Source: Vicinamibacteria bacterium (lineage in GTDB: Bacteria > Acidobacteriota > Vicinamibacteria > Marinacidobacterales > Marinacidobacteraceae). Taken from it: DNA of 64,000 nucleotides. The stretch lies in the NCBI GenBank assembly GCA_963422395.1, contig OY729431.1, positions 128,001 to 192,000 of the forward strand. The letters are read 5' to 3'. Shown piece after piece: positions 53,224 to 64,000 of this stretch (positions are counted from its first letter, which is position 1; each line of letters starts with the position of its first letter). The notes beneath the pieces were generated by a model that was not told the DNA's origin, searched no databases, and was given only the letters and a program-made list of their open reading frames with translations. Both the position numbers and the translations under genes were made by a program.

Positions 53224-53485
53224 AGAGCTGGTTCGGCGGTTTGTCTCGGCTGCCCTGATCGAGGCGGGTCTTCACCCCCTTCGGGCGGGCGTTGCCAAGC
53301 GGTCCGCTCTCGTGCCCGCCAGCTCGCCGGGCCTTCCCCGACCCTGCCGTAATATCCGCGCCGACACCCGGATTCACAGGGGTGGAAAACCCGGGGAGGA
53401 GACCCGGGGTTCGGCTGGATGGGCGGAACGGCCGCCGCCCCTCCAAGAGTAGAGATCTGGAAGAGATCGAGTTTGCCTTAGTTCC

Positions 53486-53572
53486 GGAGGGGTGCAAGAG
53501 CGGCTGAATTGGCCAGCCCGGAAAGCTGGTGTACCGGCAACGGTACCGTGGGTTCGAATCCCACCCCCTCCG
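53486..53572 (+). tRNA. tRNA-Ser(GGA)
   Basis: Acceptor stem ggagggg/cccctcc, anticodon stem ccagc/gctgg with GGA at 53520-53522, long variable arm gtaccg/cggtac, T-loop ggttcgaatcc. Confidence 0.95.
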
Positions 53573-53745
53573 CCGAACTGGCCTTGCGAAAGGTCATTCG
53601 GTTCCCCGAAATCGAGCCTTTCCCCACTGTTTTGGTGGTTTCCGACGAATTCGACGGCGAATTCTCCACAGACCGACTGATTTCCAAGCAAACACAACCC
53701 AAACACAAACACCTGAAGGATCGCCGCCCGGAACCTCGAGGCGCC

Positions 53746-55674
53746 ATGAGCGGCGGCCGCCCCCCGCTCCGCCACCACGAAGAGCTGACCCCCGAATTCG
53801 TCGAGGCGGCGCCGGAAGGGCGCTTCGACGACGGCAACGGCCTGGCGCTGTTCGTCGCGGAAGACGGCTCGCGCCGCTGGAAGCAGCAGCTCCGGCTCCG
53901 GGGCCGCGATTACTGGGTGGGCCTGGGCAACGCCGCGGTGATCCCGCTCGAAGAGGTGCGGGCGCTGGCGCTCGAGAACTTCGAGTCCGCCCGCCGCCGG
54001 GAGGAGGCCGAGAAGATCGAGAAGGAGACGGCGCCGGAGCAGGAGCAGGCGGTCCAGGCCCCGGCCGAGCCCGCCCGCCGCCCGCGGCGGCGGCGGAAGC
54101 TCTGCGACGAGCTCACCGTCGAGCGCATCGAGCAGAACCCGGCGGGGCGCTACGCCGACGGGCGGGGCCTCCACCTGAGCATCTCCCCGACGGGGGTGCG
54201 CCGCTGGTACCAGGTGGTCACCTCCCGCGGGAAGACGCACCGGATCGACCTCGACCTGTATCCGAAGGTTTCGCTCGCGGCGGCGCGGGCGCGGGCGCTC
54301 GAGAACTGGGAGATCGCCCGCGCCGGCGGCGACCTCTCCGGCCGGGACGCCACCGGGCTGACGCTCTCGCAGAAGCGGAGCATCGCCGCCCGGCAGGCGG
54401 CGGCCTGGCGGGACTACGCGCTGACGCTCAGCGAGGAGATCGTCGAGCAGGCGCCGCCGGGGCGCCACCCGGACGGCAACGGGCTGGCGCTGGTGGTCTC
54501 CAACCGCGGGGTGCGGCACTGGAATCAGCGGCTGGTCATCGACGGGCGGACGCGCTCCTTCGGCCTGGGGAGCACTGCGGATCTCTCGCTCGCGGCGGCG
54601 CGGGAGCTGGCGCAGAAGAACCGGGAGATCGCCGGCGAAGGCCGGGATCCGCGGCGGAAGCTGCCGATCCGCTGGGCCGGCAGCCGCGGGCCGGCCGGGA
54701 CGACGGGCCGCCGCGGCGCTGCCCTCGTCCGCCGGGCGATCCGGGCCGCGGGCCAGGGGGTTTCGCTCGCGGAGGCGATGACCTTCGAGCAGGCGGCGGC
54801 GGCGGTGCTCGATCTGCACCGCGACAGCTGGGTGAAGAAGCACATCGAGGAATGGGAGTCCGCGCTGCGGCGCTTCGTCTTCCCGAACCTGGGGGTGTTG
54901 CCGATCTCGAAGATCACCCCGCAGCAGGTGGTCGAGGTGCTCCGCCCGATCTGGCGGGATCGGCCGGTGACCGCGCAGCGGGTGCGGCAGCGGATGGGGC
55001 TGGTGTTCCGCTGGGCGCAGGCGACCGGCATCCGCCCCGACGACCCGGCGGCGGCGGCGAATGTGATGCTGCCGCGGCAACGGCACCAGGTTCGGCACTT
55101 CAAGGCGCTGCCCCACGCCGAGGTGCGGGAAGTGATCGCCCGGGTGCGAGCCGCGCCGTCCGCCGCCGCCGTCCGGCAGGGGCTCGAATTCCTGATTCTG
55201 ACCGCCGCGCGCTCCGGCGAAGTGCGGCGGGCCAGCTGGGGGGAGATCGACATGACGCAGCGGCTCTGGACGGTGCCGGCGGAGCGGATGAAGGCGAAGC
55301 GCCAGCACCGGGTGCCGCTGGCGCCCGCAGCCGTCGCGCTCCTCGTCGAGGCGGGCGGCGGCCAGGGGAAGAAGCCGGACAGCGCGCTGCTCTTCCCCAG
55401 CTCGAGCGGGGCCCCGCTCTCCGACGGGACCTTCGGGAAGCTGCTCCGCTCCCTCGAGGTCGCGGCGGTGCCGCACGGTTTCCGCACCAGCTTCCGCACC
55501 TGGTGCGCGGAGAAGACCCCCTTCCCCCGCGAGGTCGCCGAACGGGCGCTCGCCCACATCGTCCGCGACGCCACCGTGGCGGCTTACGACCGCTCCGACC
55601 TACTCGCCAAGCGTCGCGAGCTGATGGAGCTGTGGTCCCACTATGTGCAGCCGATCCGGAGGCTCTTCAGGTGA
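53746..55674 (+). CDS. P4-like tyrosine integrase with three arm-DNA-binding (DUF4102-like) domains
   Basis: Catalytic TAARSGE, MKAKR, HGFR, LAH, AAY; three DG[NR]GLxL...W repeats. Confidence 0.93.
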   Translation: MSGGRPPLRHHEELTPEFVEAAPEGRFDDGNGLALFVAEDGSRRWKQQLRLRGRDYWVGLGNAAVIPLEEVRALALENFESARRREEAEKIEKETAPEQEQAVQAPAEPARRPRRRRKLCDELTVERIEQNPAGRYADGRGLHLSISPTGVRRWYQVVTSRGKTHRIDLDLYPKVSLAAARARALENWEIARAGGDLSGRDATGLTLSQKRSIAARQAAAWRDYALTLSEEIVEQAPPGRHPDGNGLALVVSNRGVRHWNQRLVIDGRTRSFGLGSTADLSLAAARELAQKNREIAGEGRDPRRKLPIRWAGSRGPAGTTGRRGAALVRRAIRAAGQGVSLAEAMTFEQAAAAVLDLHRDSWVKKHIEEWESALRRFVFPNLGVLPISKITPQQVVEVLRPIWRDRPVTAQRVRQRMGLVFRWAQATGIRPDDPAAAANVMLPRQRHQVRHFKALPHAEVREVIARVRAAPSAAAVRQGLEFLILTAARSGEVRRASWGEIDMTQRLWTVPAERMKAKRQHRVPLAPAAVALLVEAGGGQGKKPDSALLFPSSSGAPLSDGTFGKLLRSLEVAAVPHGFRTSFRTWCAEKTPFPREVAERALAHIVRDATVAAYDRSDLLAKRRELMELWSHYVQPIRRLFR

Positions 55675-55704
55675 GCGGCGGCGGGGGGCGGCGGGGGCGC
55701 TGAC

Positions 55705-55869
55705 ATGCCGCGGGCGAAGGAATACCGCGCCCGCCGGTCGGCGGGGATATGCGTCGAGTGCCCGACCGGCACCGCGGCCTCGCGCTGCCCCGAGTGCCGC
55801 CGGCGCGAACGGCTGCGGTCGCGGGCGAAGGCGCGGAGCGAGCGGTCGCGGGGGAAGTCGCGGCGATGA
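55705..55869 (+). CDS. 54-aa basic Zn-finger protein
   Basis: Manual translation: MPRAKEYRARRSAGICVECPTGTAASRCPECRRRER...; ATGA-coupled to the next gene. Confidence 0.6.
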   Translation: MPRAKEYRARRSAGICVECPTGTAASRCPECRRRERLRSRAKARSERSRGKSRR

Positions 55870-56252
55870 CGATCGCAGCGGCGAGGGCGCTCGTCGCCGC
55901 CACCGACAACGAGCGCTCCGCTCCGCAGTTCAGCGAAGAGCTGCGCGAGGAGCTCCGCCGCATCCTCGACCCGAAGCCCTTTCCGATGCCTGGGCATCGG
56001 ATCCGGGTGCACTGCCGCAGCTGCGGGGCCGAGGACTGGGAAACCTGCCCGCCATCGCCGCCGATGTGCTCGCAACTGACCTGGTTCTGCGGGCCGTGCC
56101 GGCACGACTGGAACCTGCCGTCGCCGGCATTCGCCCTCCCTACCGGGCGCTACCTGTCGGTTCCCGAATACCAGGCGCGGTACCGGCGCACCCAGGAGAA
56201 GCGGCGGCTGCTGGCCGAGGCGCCCGGGATGCTGGCGGGGGCAGGCGGCTGA
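55866..56252 (+). CDS. Hypothetical Zn-ribbon protein
   Basis: CRSC...CGPC; coupled to neighbours at both ends. Confidence 0.6.
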   Translation: MTIAAARALVAATDNERSAPQFSEELREELRRILDPKPFPMPGHRIRVHCRSCGAEDWETCPPSPPMCSQLTWFCGPCRHDWNLPSPAFALPTGRYLSVPEYQARYRRTQEKRRLLAEAPGMLAGAGG

Positions 56253-58231
56253 TGCCGGCGTTCGCGGCGGCGATCAGGGCGCTTTCGGCCGCCGGCGCCC
56301 AGCTGGTGCGGCTCGACTCCGCCAAGAAACCGATCGATCGCCGCTGGCTGAAACAGGGGTGCCGCCCCGAAGCGGCGGCCCGCCACCTGGCGGCGCCGGG
56401 GGGCGGCCTCCTCGGCCTGATCCCGGCCTCGGTCGGGGCGCTGGTGGTGGACCTGGACCGGGGGGCGGCGGCGGAGGTCGAGGAGCGCCTGGGCCAGTCG
56501 GCAGCCGCCCGGCTGCCCAGCCGGCGGGCCGGCGGGGCGCACCTGTTCTATCGGGCGGCGGCAGGGCTCTGGTGCGGGAACAAACAATTCCGCCTTCCCG
56601 GCGGCGCCGGCGGGGAGATTCGCCACGCGAACGGCTGCGTGGCACTCCACGCCCTGGCCGAAGTGCCGCGGGCGCTGACCGCGCTCGCCGTCGCCGCGCC
56701 GCTCTCCCCGGACCGCCTCGACCTGCTGCTCGAAGGCAGCGGCTCCGCCGGCGCCGGGCGGACGGCGCCCGCGCTCCACGGCCCGGAGGCGGTCCTGGCG
56801 GCGGCGAAGGGCGAGCGGAACCTGCGGCTGAACGGCGAGGCGTTCCGCGAAGCGCGGCGCGGCTCGCTGACGCCCGAGCGCCGAGCCGCCTACCGGGCGG
56901 CGGCGGTCGCCTCCGGGCTGCCTCCGGAGGAGGCGGCCCGCACGCTGGACAACGCCGAGCGCGGCGCGAAGAAGAAGGCGGGGACGAGAGCGGCAGGAAT
57001 TCCCTCTGGGCCCGCTGCCCACCGCCCGGCGCCCCCCGCTGCCGGCGAGACGGCGCCCCGAGCAGCAGCGACGGCACCCGCCGCCGGAGCGGCGCTGCTC
57101 GACCGTCTCGCCGAAGAGTTCGCGCGGGTGGCGCCGCTGCCGCCCGGAGGGAGCGCGGCGCTGGCGCTGTGGGCGGTTTCCACCTGGACGGTCGAACGCT
57201 TCCCGGTGGCGCCGCTGCTGTTGCTGCTGGCCTCGGCCCGCCGCCGCCCCGCCGGCGAGAAGGCGATCCTCGAAGCCCTCGCCGCCGTGGTCCGCGAGCC
57301 GCAGCCGATCTCCGGGATCGTCGATCCCGCCGGTCTCTACGCGGCGGCTGACCCATCTGGCCCCGGCGCCGGCAGCAGCCTGCGCCCGCCGACCGGCCTG
57401 CTCCACGAAGTGGGGCGGCGCGGCGCGCCGCTGCGGAAGGCGCTGCGGGAAGCGCTGCGGGATGGTGCGTTCCGCCGGTGGCAGGTTCGGGGGGAGGGGG
57501 CGCGGACGGCGTTCGCGGCGCGGGCGGTGGGGCTTTGCCGCGGGAAGGCGCCGGAGGAACTCGCGCCGCTCGCGGTGACGCTGCAGCTGCCGGGGCTGCG
57601 TCCGGCGGCGGCGCCGTCGTTGTTTCGCGTGGAACCTCCGGCGGCCTTCTCGCGGGCGCTCGCCGGTGCGGCAGAGGCGGCGGCGGCGGCGCTCGCTCCC
57701 GCCCTCGCTCCCGACGGCCGCTCTCCCGACGGGGTTCCCGACGGGATTCCGCAGTCCTGGGGGCCGCTGCTCGCGCTCGCCGCGGCGGCGGGCGCCGGCT
57801 GGCGGCAGCGCGCCCGGCGGGCGGCGGAGGCCGTCGCCCGGCAGCATCCGAACAGCCCCTGGACGGCGGTGCTGGTCGCGGATCTGCGGGCGCTCGCGGC
57901 GGCGCGCGGCGCGGAATGGCCCGACCTGGGGCGCTTCCTGGCCACCGAGGACGCGCTCGCCGGGCTGGCGGCGATGCCGGGGCGCCCCTGGGCCGCCTGG
58001 AGCGGCGGGGTCGCCATCACCTCGCAGGCGGTGCGCCGCCTGCTCTACCCGGCGGGGATCGGAGCCGTCCGCGAGCCTTGCAGCTCGGTTGCTCGCCGCC
58101 ACGGCCGGCGCCGGCGCGGCTACCGCCTCGCCGACCTGCGGCTGCCGGCGGAGTGGGAGCAGCCGGGCAGCGGCAGCGCCGGCGAAGCAGCAGCAGCAGC
58201 GGCCCCCGAGCCGGCGGGCGGCCCGCGATGA
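56252..58231 (+). CDS. Bifunctional primase/polymerase (Prim-Pol) with PriCT-like and DUF3631-like regions
   Basis: KKP, LVVDLD, GGAHLFY, GERNLRLN; C-terminal SWGPLLALA...RARRAA...PWAAW...RGYRLADL. Confidence 0.75.
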   Translation: MPAFAAAIRALSAAGAQLVRLDSAKKPIDRRWLKQGCRPEAAARHLAAPGGGLLGLIPASVGALVVDLDRGAAAEVEERLGQSAAARLPSRRAGGAHLFYRAAAGLWCGNKQFRLPGGAGGEIRHANGCVALHALAEVPRALTALAVAAPLSPDRLDLLLEGSGSAGAGRTAPALHGPEAVLAAAKGERNLRLNGEAFREARRGSLTPERRAAYRAAAVASGLPPEEAARTLDNAERGAKKKAGTRAAGIPSGPAAHRPAPPAAGETAPRAAATAPAAGAALLDRLAEEFARVAPLPPGGSAALALWAVSTWTVERFPVAPLLLLLASARRRPAGEKAILEALAAVVREPQPISGIVDPAGLYAAADPSGPGAGSSLRPPTGLLHEVGRRGAPLRKALREALRDGAFRRWQVRGEGARTAFAARAVGLCRGKAPEELAPLAVTLQLPGLRPAAAPSLFRVEPPAAFSRALAGAAEAAAAALAPALAPDGRSPDGVPDGIPQSWGPLLALAAAAGAGWRQRARRAAEAVARQHPNSPWTAVLVADLRALAAARGAEWPDLGRFLATEDALAGLAAMPGRPWAAWSGGVAITSQAVRRLLYPAGIGAVREPCSSVARRHGRRRRGYRLADLRLPAEWEQPGSGSAGEAAAAAAPEPAGGPR

Positions 58232-58584
58232 AAGGCGGCAAGACCGGCGGCAGCTGCGCAAACTGCCCTCGGCCTGTCCAGCAGGGCCGCACCCGGTGTT
58301 TTCGCTGTGCGCTCCGCGCTGCCGAGAAGGAAAGGCGAAGGCGCCAGGAGCGGAAGGATCTGGGGCTCTGCGCACAGTGCGCCGATCCCCAGATCCGCGG
58401 GACGAGCCGCTGCCGCAAGCACCTGCAGATCAACGCCGAAAGGCGTTTCCAAGAGCGGCGCCGACTGCGCGGGGGACCCCCGCGGGCCCCTGACAACTCG
58501 AACCATCCGTGGAGGAGGGCCGAGGCCGCCTCCTGGGCCGCCCGGAAGCCCGCCCGGGAAGCCCGCCCGCCGCATGATGGATGA
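58228..58584 (+). CDS. Double Zn-finger basic protein
   Basis: CANC...CFRC and CAQC...CRKH. Confidence 0.65.
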   Translation: MKGGKTGGSCANCPRPVQQGRTRCFRCALRAAEKERRRRQERKDLGLCAQCADPQIRGTSRCRKHLQINAERRFQERRRLRGGPPRAPDNSNHPWRRAEAASWAARKPAREARPPHDG

Positions 58585-59089
58585 CCAGCACGGCGCATAC
58601 GAGGCCGCGTACACGCACGCGACCGAGGTCGCGGCGCGCATTCGGAAAGGGGAAAAGCGAGAGCTCGACGAGCTCGATCTGGCTCACTACACCCTCGCAA
58701 TGGCCCGACGCCGGGGGGTCCAGCGAATGATCCACCGGGGCCTGCTCCGCCGGCGCCGGCTCACCGAGCTGCTGACTCCGGAGTGCCTACGCCCCCCGAA
58801 CTTCGAAGAACGGGTCGCGCTGCAGCGGGCGCAGGAGACCGCTTGGGCGAAGCGGAAGCAGCAGCCCGCCCCCCGACCCCTGAACTCCGCCCCAGTGAAC
58901 ACGACCTGGCGAGCCCGGCCATGCGTCGAGCTCGACGCCACCGCCGACAAGTGGCTCTTCGCCTGCGAGGACGGAACCCCTTTGGTCCAGTCCGAAGACG
59001 CCGCCCGCAAACGGCGGGTCTTCATGGATTCCCTGGAACTCCAGCAGAGAGCGAAACGCATACAGCGTCATGCTCCTCGACTCTGGTGA
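58574..59089 (+). CDS. Phage hypothetical protein
   Basis: Coupled ORF with normal composition from MMDDQHG. Confidence 0.55.
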   Translation: MMDDQHGAYEAAYTHATEVAARIRKGEKRELDELDLAHYTLAMARRRGVQRMIHRGLLRRRRLTELLTPECLRPPNFEERVALQRAQETAWAKRKQQPAPRPLNSAPVNTTWRARPCVELDATADKWLFACEDGTPLVQSEDAARKRRVFMDSLELQQRAKRIQRHAPRLW

Positions 59090-59100
59090 GCGACCGCGCC

Positions 59101-59805
59101 ATGAAGGATCGCCGGGTGCTCGACTCCGGGGCGCGGATGCGCCTCGAGGTTCTGATCGAAGGCCGGGACGCGGTCACGAGCTCCGAGGCGGCCCGGCTGC
59201 TTTCGCCGCCGCTCACGAAGAGCAAACAGGTCGCGGTGGGGAAGTTCTTCGCCGGCCTGGGATGGGCGGCCCATCGCTGCCGCGGGGAGGCCGGAGTGGG
59301 CCAGAAGACCATCTACCAGAGGTCTGGAAACCGCCGCCCCGGGCAGCGCTTCGAGCACTCCCTCACCCCCACCGAGGGCGAACGGCTGCTCGCGCTGCTC
59401 GAAGGCCGGGAGGTGATCCCGGTGGCCGAGATCGTGGCCGCGCTCGGAGGGGGCCGCTCCCACGGGCGGATGACCGCCATCGGACGCTTCCTGAATCGCC
59501 GCGGCTGGACCTCGATGCGCAACAGCGGCGCGACGGCGGGCCGGGACCGCTACCGGCGGGTGCGGTACGACCAGATCGAGGCGGTCGTGGACTTCGCCGC
59601 CAGCCGCCAGCCGGCGAGTGTCCGGATCTCGGAGATCGAGAACCACTTGCGGGCGGCTTTCCCCGGGCAGCCGATCCTCGCCCGGTACCGGATCGGCATG
59701 TTGATGCCGAAGCTGGGCTACCGGCGGTGGAAGCGGAGGGCCCGAGAGGGCCAGGGGAAGGAGGAGTCGGTCTATCAGCGCGCGGCGCCGGCTTCGCTGC
59801 GATGA
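59101..59805 (+). CDS. Protein with three tandem winged-helix-like repeats
   Basis: VGKFFAGLGW..IYQR / IGRFLNRRGW..RYRR / IGMLMPKLGY..VYQR. Confidence 0.65.
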   Translation: MKDRRVLDSGARMRLEVLIEGRDAVTSSEAARLLSPPLTKSKQVAVGKFFAGLGWAAHRCRGEAGVGQKTIYQRSGNRRPGQRFEHSLTPTEGERLLALLEGREVIPVAEIVAALGGGRSHGRMTAIGRFLNRRGWTSMRNSGATAGRDRYRRVRYDQIEAVVDFAASRQPASVRISEIENHLRAAFPGQPILARYRIGMLMPKLGYRRWKRRAREGQGKEESVYQRAAPASLR

Positions 59806-60182
59806 CGGCGCTGGCGGCGCGGCGCTGGATCGAGGCGAACCGCGCTCTGGTCCAGGCGCCCCCGGGGACGGTCTGGCGCGAGCTGGCGACCGGCGAGTTC
59901 CGCTGCGAGGTCGAGGGGGAGACCTGCTGCCCGGCGGGGGTGGCGATCCTCCGATACTGCGGGGAAGAAGAAGAGGCCGAAGACGGTCCCCAGCACCAGC
60001 CCCTCGACCTGCAGGTGCCGGATCCGGAAGAGATGAGCCGGCGCCTCGACGGGCTCGACCTGGCGGCGGCGCAGGCGCTGGCCGTCGCCGGCGACAACGA
60101 GCGAAACGACCCTCGGTTCAGCGTCGAGCTGCGGAAGGCGCTCCGCCGCGCTCTGGGCGAGGTCCTCCCGTTCCAGCCGTGA
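59802..60182 (+). CDS. Phage hypothetical protein
   Basis: ATGA-coupled; CCPAG motif. Confidence 0.55.
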   Translation: MTALAARRWIEANRALVQAPPGTVWRELATGEFRCEVEGETCCPAGVAILRYCGEEEEAEDGPQHQPLDLQVPDPEEMSRRLDGLDLAAAQALAVAGDNERNDPRFSVELRKALRRALGEVLPFQP

Positions 60183-60301
60183 GTTGCTCCATGGCGAACG
60201 ACCTCGAGAGCGGCTTCTTCTCGGCGGCGGTCCGGGGCGCGCTCCGCTGCGCCCTGGCCCTGACGCCGGCGGCGCAGCAGCTGCCCCCTCGGTAGCAGCC
60301 G

Positions 60302-60541
60302 GTGGACGAAGGCACCCCGACAGCGGAGGTGCTCGTCTTCCTCGATTGGAATCCCGGGGACCGGGTCTGGACCGCGTGGCGCGTCCAGTCGGGGCAGCTG
60401 TACGGGGAACGGATCGCCGCCGCCCCCTCGGTGGTGGAAGTGATCGCGCGGGCCCGCGCCTGGGCGAACGAGCACCGCCTCCGTATCGAGCGGACCCTCA
60501 TCGAGGCGGGGTGGGCTCCGGTGTTCCTCGAGGGGCCGTAG
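60302..60541 (+). CDS. Phage hypothetical protein
   Basis: ORF track; plausible composition. Confidence 0.45.
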   Translation: MDEGTPTAEVLVFLDWNPGDRVWTAWRVQSGQLYGERIAAAPSVVEVIARARAWANEHRLRIERTLIEAGWAPVFLEGP

Positions 60542-60553
60542 GCCGCCGGGCAG

Positions 60554-60889
60554 ATGGTGATCGACCTGGGCTACCCCACGCTCGCGCAGAACTGGATCTA
60601 CGCCTGGGCCGGCGGCGGCCCGGGAGACCCACTGCCGCCGGGACTCCCGGACACTCCCAGCGAATACCCGGATGGAAACGGGGCCGCGAAGCGCTACGAG
60701 TTCGCCGACGGCTCCGCTGTGATCCGTGACGCTTTCGGGGCGAACGACTGGGAGCTGGGCATCCACCGGGAGCAGCTGGAGGCCAGCCGAGAGCGAATCG
60801 AAGCAGAGAACGAATCGGTTGCCGAAGCGGCGCCGGTGTACTTCGAGGAGCAGCTGGCGGTTCCGCCGGGGACGCCGATCTGCCGATGA
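60554..60889 (+). CDS. Phage hypothetical protein
   Basis: ORF track; coupled to the next gene. Confidence 0.5.
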   Translation: MVIDLGYPTLAQNWIYAWAGGGPGDPLPPGLPDTPSEYPDGNGAAKRYEFADGSAVIRDAFGANDWELGIHREQLEASRERIEAENESVAEAAPVYFEEQLAVPPGTPICR

Positions 60890-61134
60890 GCGTTCTTCGA
60901 CATCTCTGCCCTGCCTGCGGCGCCCGGCTTCGGGTGAGCCGCCGCCGGGGCCGGCAGGAAGGCAGATGCAGCGGCTACCGCGGGCGGGGGCCGCTTCCAG
61001 CGATGAACGGCAGCGGCGGGCGCGATCCCGACAAGTGGGGCCGATCCTGCGGGCGCGATTTCGACCACACGGCGGACGGGTGGGTCGAGCGGAAACCCGA
61101 GCCTGCCGTTTTCTGGATGCCGGGGCCGCGCTGA
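60886..61134 (+). CDS. Zn-ribbon hypothetical protein
   Basis: CPAC...C...CGRDF. Confidence 0.5.
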   Translation: MSVLRHLCPACGARLRVSRRRGRQEGRCSGYRGRGPLPAMNGSGGRDPDKWGRSCGRDFDHTADGWVERKPEPAVFWMPGPR

Positions 61135-61504
61135 CGGAGCTGCTGACGGGCCGCTGACGGCCTTCCGGCGCCGGGGGGTGGTCGGAGGGGCCGGGGGAGA
61201 GCGCGGCGCGGTCTGGGGCGCCTTCTGGGCGCTCCTGGGGGTAGGGAACGGGCGTCCGATGCTTCCGGTGCCGGTCCAGCGGTGAGGTCTCCGGCGGCGA
61301 GAGGTTCGGCGGGGATCGGGTTTCCGGTTCGGTTCGCTCTTTTCGGATCGCCTCGGAGTTTGGAGTCGGGCCGTTTTCGCGGCTGCAGCGCGGATTTCCC
61401 GACTCTGATTTTTTCTTCTTCTTGGGTTTTTTCTGGATTGGATTTCGGTTTTCGCCGGGTTCCGCAGTTGCTCGGTTTGCCTCCCCTTCCTACCTTCTTC
61501 ATGG

Positions 61505-61850
61505 GTACGCGCGCGTACGCGTACGCGCGAGGCCAAGTCGTTGACTGATTTATGGAAAGGGGAGGGCCGGTGTGTACGCGAAATTCATACCTATCGATTT
61601 ACACCGGCCCTCCCCCCCGGTAAGTCATTGAAAAATGGGGGGGGGGGGGGGGGGCGGCCGGTGTCGTTCGAGATCTCGAACCCGTTCTGAAGACACCGGC
61701 CCTCCCCCTGAAAACCGCGCCGGGTCAAGGAGTTCCGGCTTCGAATGGGCCAGGGGAGGGCCGGTGTCTCTGTTCGAGCGCCGGATCCGTCAACAGGTTT
61801 TCAACAGGTTTTCAACAGTCTGGAAGGTAGTTTTCAACAAAATGTTGAAC
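61505..61850. repeat. Iteron-like repeat region (candidate element origin)
   Basis: Five alternating-orientation GGGGAGGGCCGGTGT motifs, an 18-G run, 11-bp TCAACAGGTTT repeats and an AT-rich flank. Confidence 0.65.
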
Positions 61851-62017
61851 TTCTATTCAGCATTCCATTTTTTCAAGGAGATCACTACTCACTATTTGAG
61901 TGATTCCTTAGGATTTTGGCGACTTCCCGCCGCGGAAGAAGGGGGCCAGTGCCAGGCAGAGGAGCGCCGCCAGCCAGAGGGCGCCGTAGAGGATCGCCCC
62001 GGCCAGCGCTTCCGGGT

Positions 62018-62857
62018 TCAGAAAAGCAGGCGGGCGGCGCGACCGAGGTCGAGGGTGACCCCGATCCCGCAGTGCCAGCCGCTCTCGGGGCCGCCGAAGC
62101 TGCGGGCGCAGGTGGGGCCGACGGCGAAGGGGAAGCGGGCCCGAGCGGCGGCTCTCGCGGCTTCTTCGACCGCCGCCTCGGCGGCGCGTCCGAAGTCGGC
62201 AGCGCGCGCTTCGGCGAGGTCGGCGCGGCGCTCGGCTGCAGCCCGCGCGAAGGCCTGGGCGTCGTGCGCCTGCCGCAGCTCGTCGAGCGCCTCGCGGAGC
62301 GCCGCTTCCCGGCGCTCCTGGACCTCCCGCCGCAGTTCGAGCTCGTAGGCGTAGTTGCGCAGCGCGTCGAGGTCGCGTTCGGCGCGTTCGAGCCGCAGCC
62401 GGAGTTCCCCGGGGGGCAGCGATTCGGGCTCGGGGGGCTCCGGCGCTTCCGGCTCGGGGGGCTTCGGCCAGTGCGCGCTCGGGGACTCCGGGAGCGGCGG
62501 CAGGAAGAACTCGCCCGCCAGCAGCTGCTCCAGCTCTTCCGCGCGGCGCAGGTGCTGTTCGGCCTCGTCGCGGAAGCCGTCGGCCTCGGCGCGGGCGTAG
62601 CGGATGTCGGCCCGGTAGCGGGCGTGGGCCAGATCGTCCAGCAGCCCGGAAGCGCCCGTCGGCGCCCCGGCGGCGGGGCGCCGGCCGCGGGCGGTCCAGC
62701 CGGCGGCGGCCCCGGTTCCGGCCGCGGCCAGGGCCAGCCAGAGGGCGGGCCGGCGCAGCGCGGGCGCCAGCCAGGCGGCGGTCAGCCGGACCAGCCGCCA
62801 GCCGGCAGAGAGCGCGGCGGTGATGACGGCGGAAAGGACTGCGGAGACGACGGCCAA
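62018..62857 (-). CDS. Membrane-anchored coiled-coil protein, possibly spanin-like
   Basis: N-terminal hydrophobic segments, long helical region, C-terminal beta hairpin with 2 Cys, ending in F. Confidence 0.5.
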   Translation of the reverse strand: MAVVSAVLSAVITAALSAGWRLVRLTAAWLAPALRRPALWLALAAAGTGAAAGWTARGRRPAAGAPTGASGLLDDLAHARYRADIRYARAEADGFRDEAEQHLRRAEELEQLLAGEFFLPPLPESPSAHWPKPPEPEAPEPPEPESLPPGELRLRLERAERDLDALRNYAYELELRREVQERREAALREALDELRQAHDAQAFARAAAERRADLAEARAADFGRAAEAAVEEAARAAARARFPFAVGPTCARSFGGPESGWHCGIGVTLDLGRAARLLF

Positions 62858-63164
62858 ATGAGGACGGCCCCCGAAAAGGGGCGGCGGCGGGCGGGGGGAA
62901 AGGGGGGAATCGCTGGGTGAGCCGGCCCCCGAGTGTGGAGAACCGAACGCTTCCGGCCGAATCGCAGACAGCGGCCCTTGATCCCGATTCCAGGCGCTCG
63001 ACGCCCCGAAGGGTAACCGGAGGAATTCCGGCGAACGGCCTCTTCAGCGACTGGCCGGGCGGGTAGCGAGCGGCTGGTCGGCGATCACTTTCCCTCGGTT
63101 CGTGTTCCACAACCTGGGTTGTCGTGCACAGGTGATCGGTGAACGGCGCCGGTGGGCGTTCCGA

Positions 63165-63593
63165 TCAGGGCTTTTCGATCAGGGAGTCTCGATCGGGCGG
63201 GGACCCCCCGGCGCCCGCGGTCTCGTTCACCGAGACGCCCCGCGCCCAGGCTTCGGCGAAGAGGTCGGCGGCGGTTCGGCGGTTCTGCTCGGCAGCGCCC
63301 GCTTCGGCGGGGAGGAAGTCGGCCAGTTCGGGCGCTTCGCCGCCGCTTCCGCTGAAGACGCGGGAGACCAGCCAGGGGGTGAGCGCCAGCATCCGGTGCA
63401 GGATGGCGGGGCCGAAGGGGGCGGCTCGCCAGTGCTGGATCCAGTCGTCGAGCCAGCGCGCCGGCCAGCGGCTTTCCAGGATGTCGGGGTGCGGCGCCCC
63501 GACCGCGAGCGCTAGCTGGTGGAGGAAGTAGCGCTCGCCGGAGCGGGTCGCGCGCGCCGCTTCGACTTCGCTCGCGGCTTCGCCGCCGGTGCG
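63165..63593 (-). CDS. Tail assembly chaperone T-frame (gpT-like), reached by -1 frameshift
   Basis: Manual translation: ERYFLHQLALAVGAPHPDILESRWPARWLDDWIQHWRAAPFG...LADFLP. Confidence 0.7.
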   Translation of the reverse strand, partial: RTGGEAASEVEAARATRSGERYFLHQLALAVGAPHPDILESRWPARWLDDWIQHWRAAPFGPAILHRMLALTPWLVSRVFSGSGGEAPELADFLPAEAGAAEQNRRTAADLFAEAWARGVSVNETAGAGGSPPDRDSLIEKP

Positions 63594-64000
63594 TTTTTTT
63601 TCGACCCGGGATCGTCGGGGCCGGTCTCGGGGCCGGCGGCGGCCGCAGCCGCCTCGGAGAGGCCGAGCGCGTCGGCCACCGCCCCTTCGGCGAGCAGCCC
63701 GGCGGCGGTTTCGAGGGTCTGGTGCAGGTCGTCGGCGCAGAGGAGTCCGCCCGCCTGTTCGCGGGTCAGGCCGAGCGGCCGGCCTTCCTCGTCGATGGCC
63801 AGCAGGACCGCGATGTCGAGCATCGACTGCACCAGCTGTTCAGCGCTGGCGGTCTCGGGACGGGTGTCGGCGGCGGCGGTCTCGCGGGGGGCGGCGTAGC
63901 CGGCCATGCGGATCTGGAGCAGCGAGCGCTCGACGCGGGTCGGCTCGCGCACCCGGAGCAGGCGGCCGTCCACCGTCGGGAGGTCCACCCAGGCGAAGTT
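63512..64000 (-). CDS. Tail assembly chaperone G-frame (gpG-like), 5' end outside window
   Basis: LRVREPT..ER, LLAIDEEGRP; S-K-K-N encoded by TCG AAA AAA AAC. Confidence 0.7.
   Translation of the reverse strand, partial: NFAWVDLPTVDGRLLRVREPTRVERSLLQIRMAGYAAPRETAAADTRPETASAEQLVQSMLDIAVLLAIDEEGRPLGLTREQAGGLLCADDLHQTLETAAGLLAEGAVADALGLSEAAAAAAGPETGPDDPGSKKNAPAAKPRAKSKRRARPAPASATSSTS

Follow-up and report, generated by a model that had tools for sequence, protein, structure and literature searches.

A prophage tyrosine integrase with three tandem arm-fold modules ahead of its catalytic core in a Vicinamibacteria genome

It is through arm-binding domains that a simple recombinase becomes a regulated and directional integrase, and to our knowledge the well-studied integrases all have one arm-binding domain per protomer. 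The lambda integrase (Int), with its one arm domain per protomer, obtains cooperativity and directionality through neighbouring protomers and through IHF, Xis and Fis. In one published account, the lambda-type logic is that N-terminal arm-binding, core-binding and catalytic domains bridge arm and core sites, and the IntSXT subgroup of tyrosine integrases is given one DUF4102/Arm-DNA-bind_3 domain (PMC8138268). Here we describe an integrase gene that departs from this one-arm plan. It lies in a 64,000-nucleotide stretch of DNA from a Vicinamibacteria bacterium (contig OY729431.1, positions 128,001 to 192,000), hereafter called the window; positions are counted from its first letter, and those above 64,000 lie beyond it. 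The gene belongs to a prophage inserted at a tRNA-Ser(GGA) gene and encodes a 642-aa protein in which three diverged arm-fold modules precede the core-binding and catalytic domains.

By every sequence criterion except the one-arm architecture, the protein classifies as a P4/SXT-type integrase. It has the same families in the same order (PF13356, PF22022, PF00589), its gene stands beside an insertion site at the 3' end of a tRNA, and its arm fold matches. The P4/SXT-type proteins have one arm and about 400 residues, whereas the window integrase has three arms and 642 residues, and its two distal modules lack near-invariant positions of the family, one of the two being acidic. The best matches to its full-length fold are the lambda integrase structures 1z1b, 1z1g and 5j0n, which follow the same heterobivalent domain logic; unlike lambda Int, the window integrase has extra arm folds within its own chain.

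The integrase gene (positions 53746..55674, forward strand) starts with an ATG that has GAGG 4 nt upstream and runs as a stop-free open reading frame (ORF) of 642 codons followed by a stop. With the whole protein as query, Pfam places PF13356 (Arm-DNA-bind_3) on three stretches (E 1.1e-29, 102.9 bits), the core-binding domain PF22022 at residues 347-437 (54784..55056, forward strand; E 4e-27) and the catalytic domain PF00589 at residues 455-616 (55108..55593, forward strand; E 2.4e-17, 63.7 bits versus a cut-off of 27.1). In a 65-row alignment, R489, K516, H577 and R580 are invariant and H604 and Y614 nearly invariant; judged from this alignment, the catalytic residue set is intact. The core is 53% identical to the nearest representative, and the closest solved sequence to the core-binding domain is 2khv (E 3.9e-15).

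The modules, which together with their linkers all lie on the forward strand, were scored over the 24 columns that are kept in at least 75% of 64 one-arm homologues. Module 1 (residues 11-95, 53776..54030) has a net charge of -5 and an isoelectric point of 4.9 and keeps 18 of the 24 positions. It is followed by linker 1 (residues 96-119, 54031..54102), which is predicted to be disordered, with an acidic stretch and then a basic one, and in which the predicted local distance difference test score (pLDDT) falls below 50 at residues 100-118. Module 2 (residues 120-198, 54103..54339; net charge +3) likewise keeps 18 of 24 positions, and linker 2 (residues 199-226, 54340..54423) has a predicted helix at residues 207-225 (pLDDT 66-72). 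Module 3 (residues 227-302, 54424..54651) is canonical, with 22 of 24 positions kept, and is joined to the core by linker 3 (residues 303-344, 54652..54777), which is rich in Gly, Ala and Arg and exceeds the homologues' linker in length. Scanned as separate pieces, copies 2 and 3 match PF13356 (E 4.2e-12 and 2.5e-12, respectively), and copy 1 scanned alone matches no Pfam family at E<=1. A six-frame scan of the genome with PF13356 gave four matches, two of them in this gene, and missed copy 1.

An earlier note on this DNA, made from the sequence alone, had described a 642-aa protein with three diverged arm modules before an intact R-K-HxxR-H-Y core. Pfam, BLASTP and the alignment bear out this description, and the coordinates proposed there for the three copies are accurate to within a few bases. 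The PF00589 match that it expected is the one at residues 455-616. Its prediction of three PF13356 hits holds for the whole protein but not for copy 1 alone, so that recognition by this profile is partly context-dependent; copies 2 and 3 each pass alone, and the count does not fall to the single hit that the note had named as a refutation. The AlphaFold modelling that it proposed likewise predicts three arm-fold modules, copy 1 among them, as set out below.

All three pairwise BLASTP alignments of the copies are ungapped: copy 1 is 49% identical to copy 3 (E 1e-17) and 43% identical to copy 2 (E 1e-12), copies 2 and 3 are 46% identical (E 2e-16), and 23 columns are invariant across the three. 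In the DNA, the array repeats at intervals of 327 and 315 nt; identity between copies is 72-82% where they match best and 60-64% over the domains. On these comparisons, copy 1 is a genuine homologue of copies 2 and 3. An AlphaFold model of residues 1-117 (pLDDT 84.8 overall and at least 88 at residues 11-90) has a helix, four strands and a long helix; it was built with an arm-domain alignment and so leans towards the arm fold. In a Foldseek search with this model, the top three matches in the PDB were 3jtz, 3rmp_C and 3ju0 (template-modelling score 0.64-0.82 on the target), and no other PDB match fell under E 0.4. We take 3jtz, 3ju0 and 3rmp to be solved arm domains of P4-like integrases, such as those of the HPI and HAI7 islands, and we know of no other solved arm-type domains from P4-like integrases. 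The full-length AlphaFold model repeats the helix-four-strand-helix unit three times, at residues 16-95 (pLDDT 81-91), 125-192 (75-84) and 230-297 (93-96); the 64 homologues underlying it align to copy 3 and the core only, none of them to copies 1 and 2. Residues 1-10, 100-118 and 306-320 have a pLDDT below 50, and the predicted layout is that of beads on a string preceding a confident core.

Comparison with the homologues reveals unequal copies: copy 3 has the canonical form, and highly conserved positions are missing from the other two. Copy 3 is 55-59% identical to the arm domains of ordinary integrases from related genomes and is covered by all 64 of the aligned homologues. Copy 1 has lost the closing GxDP motif, and in copy 2 GLG has become DLD, with Asp in place of an always-present Gly. 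The net charge is -5 for copy 1 and +3 for copies 2 and 3, and it ranges from +3 to +14 (mean +8, none at or below 0) in 137 homologous arms. The hydrophobic core and the turn glycines are retained in all copies. Because copy 1 is acidic and the strand-2 arginine has been lost from copies 1 and 2, three equal DNA readers are not the likeliest arrangement.

No in-frame ATG, GTG or TTG occurs in codons 157-250, so a one-arm form cannot be initiated and the extension is always made. An in-frame ATG (M345, 54778-54780) stands at the start of the core-binding domain, with a GGAGG that ends just 2 nt before it; an armless core protein made by internal initiation there is conceivable but, from the sequence, unlikely. 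A longer frame of 721 aa, which begins at TTG 53509 (P0002 in our protein collection) and runs across the tRNA-Ser(GGA) and an A/T-rich spacer, was rejected as an over-call because it overlaps the tRNA-Ser(GGA) at 53486-53574. Codon-position GC content is protein-like throughout all copies, with third-position GC (GC3) at 0.92-0.97 in the copies and at 0.92-1.0 across copies and linkers together, and second-position GC (GC2) at 0.45-0.52 in all copies. A promoter and terminator scan of 53400-56300 found none, and no RNA data were listed among the public runs carrying the stretch.

The origin of the array was examined in a tree of arm domains (140 rows), for which a profile was made from the three copies and the arm domains were cut from the stored homologues; 14 of 154 domain hits were dropped since they covered fewer than 61 profile positions. 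The three copies occupy one side of a branch with a Shimodaira-Hasegawa-like approximate likelihood ratio test (SH-aLRT) value of 84 among the 140 arm domains, a level that we regard as suggestive, not strong, support for a three-copy clade. P0007 and P0008 lie closest to them in the tree and are the nearest proteins over the core as well; their clusters (82 members for P0007, 15 of them listed, and 7 for P0008) range from 117 to 482 aa among the rows listed. The placement of the three modules in one clade points to internal duplication, and the simplest history would comprise two tandem duplications of an arm-plus-linker unit within the lineage, after which the two distal copies changed faster. 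The terminal branches measure 0.97 for copy 1, 0.79 for copy 2 and 0.62 for copy 3. Nei-Gojobori estimates between copies gave nonsynonymous divergence (dN) of 0.52-0.62 and synonymous divergence (dS) of 0.36-0.46, a dN/dS ratio above 1, and identity between copies is about equal at the three codon positions; the ratio is uninformative because a GC3 above 0.92 locks the synonymous sites compositionally. A 19-nt match of 95% identity links 54267-54285, at the start of the helix of copy 2 (VSLAAA), with 54759-54777 (VSLAEA), just before the core-binding domain, and may have been left by the unequal crossover that gave rise to the array. We also looked within linker 3 for a decayed fourth arm and dismissed it, no arm-like similarity being present (z below 0).

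The integrity of the array was assessed against public sequencing runs, seven of which, from four studies, carry all or part of the stretch. Run X1, which may be the window's own source, has a single contig over 53545-55800 with 0 differences, and run X5, from another study, has contigs over 53687-54649 and 54620-55800, also with 0 differences; short identical pieces come from a third study. An older run with the same organism label (X7) has parts at about 1% divergence, and its variant of the gene shows seven differences: ATG to GTG at codon 1, three synonymous changes and three replacements. The copies themselves, only 60-64% identical in DNA, are too diverged for collapse or expansion by an assembler. 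Since contigs from two studies span the array without differences, the mis-assembly raised as a possible refutation in the earlier note is not what these contigs show, and the array is not an artefact of this kind.

We further assessed how rare the architecture is, all of the surveys being samples of limited sensitivity. A phmmer search of 1.84 billion representatives gave 40,948 hits, of which the best 149 other than this protein are 294-526 aa long; the longer homologues that were scanned are C-terminal fusions or N-terminal extensions with one arm each. One arm is present in 151 of the 154 stored proteins, none in two and three in this protein only, which agrees with the expectation of about 400 aa and one arm for P4-type integrases. 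When proteins were ranked by summed arm-profile score (8000 scored), this protein reached 291 bits, P0157 reached 202 and the rest of the top 120 at most 131; arrays of more diverged arms could score lower and escape such a search. Word-indexed searches returned the protein itself and otherwise one-arm proteins only, no tandem arm array was present in 40 related genomes, and the clusters returned by the ESM Atlas were all of proteins about 400 aa long. A re-scan of four loci with long query spans gave one arm for each and, for the window locus as positive control, three. A tblastn search of 50,697 phage records matched 33 records, all with one arm span only and none of these spans above 225 nt, and three scans with peptide patterns from the N-terminus across genome, metagenome and viral contigs found no relative with an array.

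At the DNA level, we used a degenerate two-arm-motif pattern, which by our estimate detects at most one true array in five. It matched the window at two places (0 expected) and, tried at two spacings, none of 400 further genomes from the phylum. With this pattern, seven IMG/VR scans yielded five candidate loci, one of them real (L042); the other four were set aside as chance matches that carry no arm signal. The search for the same architecture elsewhere thus returned, in the data sampled, this protein alone with an N-terminal array, and no other integrase with such an array was found among the proteins, genomes and viral contigs sampled. Our literature searches on tandem or duplicated arm-binding domains found nothing.

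The L042 locus lies on a 68-kb viral contig (IMGVR_UViG_3300043493_000130) and has four arm hits in one frame; its array ORF and integrase together occupy L042:1508-3745. Like the window gene, it has a tandem PF13356 array on the 5' side of a P4-type int; the difference is that its array is a separate ORF, whereas that of the window is fused to the integrase. The array ORF encodes 314 aa with three arm domains (PF13356 x3, E 9.5e-52) and ends at a TAA, and 21 nt further on, after AAGGA, a 423-aa integrase starts in the same frame with one arm, PF22022 and a PF00589 match of 26.2 bits, just under the 27.1 cut-off. Named 'ferredoxin' by its source, the array ORF forms a singleton cluster and is present on two contigs; no tRNA was found in the 6.6-kb locus. 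Its arms are strongly basic (+8 to +11) and are 75-81% identical to one another, 55-61% identical to the arm of their own integrase and 32-48% identical to the window copies. This grouping with the arm of their own integrase, and not with the window copies, indicates an independent duplication, so that arms have been amplified 5' of int at least twice independently. One array is old and fused (the window) and the other young and separately encoded (L042). The parallel makes a role for the extra arms more plausible, without proof. Protein P0157 (489 aa, from a Logan assembly) resembles the window integrase in having two PF13356 stretches in one protein and differs in that its second arm comes after the catalytic domain, at about residues 400-477, probably because the frame reads through into the beginning of an adjacent integrase gene.

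The gene stands at one end of a prophage. ARAGORN places tRNA-Ser(GGA), the integration target, at 53486..53574 on the forward strand, with 171 bp between its 3' end and the int start codon. Against the loci of five relatives, blastn showed 94.6-100% identity over 53481-53575 and nothing beyond, and the efflux-pump gene upstream has orthologues in all 24 of the relatives searched. The downstream DNA was compared in six relatives (G003, G008, G006, G004, G007 and G014): four of them (G003, G008, G006 and G004) have tRNA-Ser(GGA) and then, about 0.35-1.05 kb on, the gene that starts here at 86332, and in G014 the region is rearranged. Taken together, the end of similarity at the tRNA 3' end and the synteny of the relatives define an insertion of about 32-33 kb, from 53575 to about 86330 (G000:C1:181575-214330; loci L014 and L015), most of which is outside the window. 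In G007, a different insertion of about 9 kb occupies the same tRNA-Ser(GGA) and has no homologue of this integrase (L010, G007:C1:3111500-3131499); the tRNA-Ser(GGA) site appears to be a recurrent insertion point.

Matches to PHROGs were obtained for 11 of the 23 ORF translations of the insertion, comprising endolysin, tape measure, head-tail adaptor, large terminase (E 1e-112), portal, prohead protease and major head protein, together with a tail fibre (a 1963-aa ORF) and an HNH endonuclease at the far end. The element is a tailed prophage, and the triple-arm protein is its integrase. Its tape-measure gene precedes the terminase gene, an unusual order. The left part of the prophage within the window (55643..64000) holds early-region ORFs, among them the frame 55643-58231, which follows int and contains a DUF3631 protein. 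Two of these ORFs contain an 87-nt repeat of 77% identity (55875-55961 and 60063-60149); they are paralogous small proteins with no family match, one of them Cys-rich. Neither 16 ORF translations nor a partly overlapping set of 17 contained an Xis, AlpA or helix-turn-helix (HTH) family, and the 23 translations compared with PHROGs contained no excisionase or repressor, ORFs below 60 aa being outside the scans. The earlier statement that neither is recognisable nearby therefore holds for ORFs of at least 60 aa in both types of scan. Elsewhere, the genome has a second PF13356 integrase (G000:C1:2245426-2245701, reverse strand; E 9.8e-16) and a short arm-domain fragment (908925-909083, reverse strand).

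Candidate arm-type repeats were located in the attL arm at 53688..53712 (forward strand), 34-58 bp upstream of the int start codon. They consist of GCAAACACAA and CCAAACACAA, which are 11 bp apart, and a third, overlapping repeat, CAAACAC. The 9-mer CAAACACAA has four copies in the 2.9-Mb genome (both strands), three of which are at the prophage ends: two direct copies at attL and one inverted copy at the far end. There, GCAAACACAA recurs at 85859-85868, outside the window, in the orientation opposite to that of the attL copy. Allowing one mismatch, three motif matches were found within the window, a number reached in 19 of 100 shuffles and so not above chance; the signal comes from the exact genome-wide count, not from the window count. 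A second family, GTTTCGGT, has 158 copies genome-wide, three of them within the 589-bp far end (85878, 85943 and 86285; locus L015), two direct and one inverted, and a one-mismatch copy at 53629. These candidate sites are leads for footprinting, not findings.

With moderate confidence, we favour a reading in which copy 3 is the working arm-binding domain and the other two copies are accessory or regulatory modules on tethers. The gene would be the working integrase gene of the prophage, with an N-terminus lengthened by two tandem duplications of arm-plus-linker units of 327 and 315 nt. Copy 3, adjoining the core, would hold the arm-type sites, and the core domains would work on the crossover site within the tRNA. 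Flexible linkers of about 25-35 residues would tether copies 1 and 2, which would serve as accessory modules: the basic copy 2 may hold a neighbouring repeat, the 11-bp pair being within the reach of a 30-residue linker, and the acidic copy 1 would be likelier to modulate the other arms or contact a protein than to bind DNA. A single chain would in this way perform in cis some of the tasks that lambda-like systems assign to adjacent Int protomers and to small accessory proteins. Several observations weigh against this proposal. The strand-2 Arg, found in 95% of homologues, has been replaced by Gln in copy 1 and by Val in copy 2, and the acidity of copy 1 is unmatched in the 137 homologous arms; together these changes form a pattern that fits decay too. 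Purifying selection on the extra copies is left unsupported by dN/dS. The candidate motifs are few, were chosen after inspection of the ends and lie in spacers A/T-richer than the genome average; beside related integrases, 32 of 35 loci have no match to the arm motif, the matches being confined to the window's own loci and one unrelated site. An array-bearing orthologue was not found, and conservation cannot be measured on a singleton. Finally, the searches for attR found no direct repeat of the tRNA end of at least 14 nt, so that excision may be beyond this element. Genome-wide, exact 14-mers led only to another tRNA, tRNA-Ser(CGA), which shares the T-arm and was discarded; blastn-short over 200 kb downstream gave nothing credible, and a local alignment at the far end scored 25, no better than shuffled sequence (mean 20.8, maximum 28).

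In an alternative reading, the duplications are real and copies 1 and 2 now idle, with copy 3 alone working, or having once worked, in a prophage that may be cryptic. We consider such inert baggage possible though doubtful. The missing attR repeat, the acidity of copy 1 and its failure in Pfam when scanned alone, the loss from copies 1 and 2 of 6 of the 24 conserved positions each, the strand-2 Arg included, a dN/dS not below 1 and the failure to find an array carrier outside this organism all speak for idleness. Set against them are 226 extra codons free of any stop, frameshift or intradomain indel despite more than 50% amino-acid divergence, and a hydrophobic core and turn glycines kept in every copy. 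Copies 1 and 2, moreover, reach a pLDDT of 75-91 in the AlphaFold model although no homologue aligns to them, GC2 is still 0.45-0.52 where unconstrained positions in this genome would drift upwards, and there is no start for a shorter armed protein, so that the extension is always made. The earlier note had suggested that the arms could differ in arm-site specificity, bridge the att arms in cis or stand in for an excisionase or repressor, suggestions that call for qualification since the copies are unequal. A strong version of them, which we consider improbable, gives the array a larger part, in which it reads several arm sequences, replaces a directionality factor or repressor and by itself sets the balance between integration and excision. 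The lack of Xis, AlpA and HTH families in the ORFs scanned fits this, as do the two different repeat families at the prophage ends, the repeats 34-58 bp upstream of the int start, where binding could repress int, and the position of the L042 array in a gene of its own immediately 5' of int, a common location for small accessory genes. Yet ORFs below 60 aa were outside the scans and many directionality factors escape profile searches, the charge of copy 1 argues against DNA reading, and a fused domain, which always accompanies Int, is alone no switch. That the array is an artefact (a mis-assembled repeat, ORFs fused by a sequencing error or a wrong start, with only a one-arm or armless enzyme made) is very hard to credit. 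The GGAGG before M345 makes an armless core protein conceivable, and run X1, which covers the stretch best, may be the window's own source; but the GGAGG ends just 2 nt before the ATG of M345, the 642 codons are stop-free with no start in codons 157-250, the copies, at 60-64% DNA identity, are too diverged for assembler error, and the contigs of a second study cover the array with 0 differences.

A broader proposal, which we put forward as an unlikely one, is that arm arrays, either fused or encoded as a separate poly-arm protein upstream of int, are a recurrent and undescribed means by which temperate phages control tyrosine integrases. Such arrays would occupy or bridge clustered arm-type repeats, in fused arrays an acidic N-terminal pseudo-arm would act as a built-in regulator, and jointly they would take over the roles of cooperative protomers, of a directionality factor or of an int repressor.

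The triple-arm architecture is rare but real and may alter how a phage controls its insertion and excision; the integrase array is currently a singleton with one independent parallel, L042. It offers a natural experiment on the number of arm contacts that an integrase or intasome needs, and, with L042, it provides constructs for asking whether tethering replaces accessory proteins and whether the arm fold can become a regulator. Should the extra modules turn out to be inert, they would still be a dated example of domain duplication and decay in a mobile-element gene.

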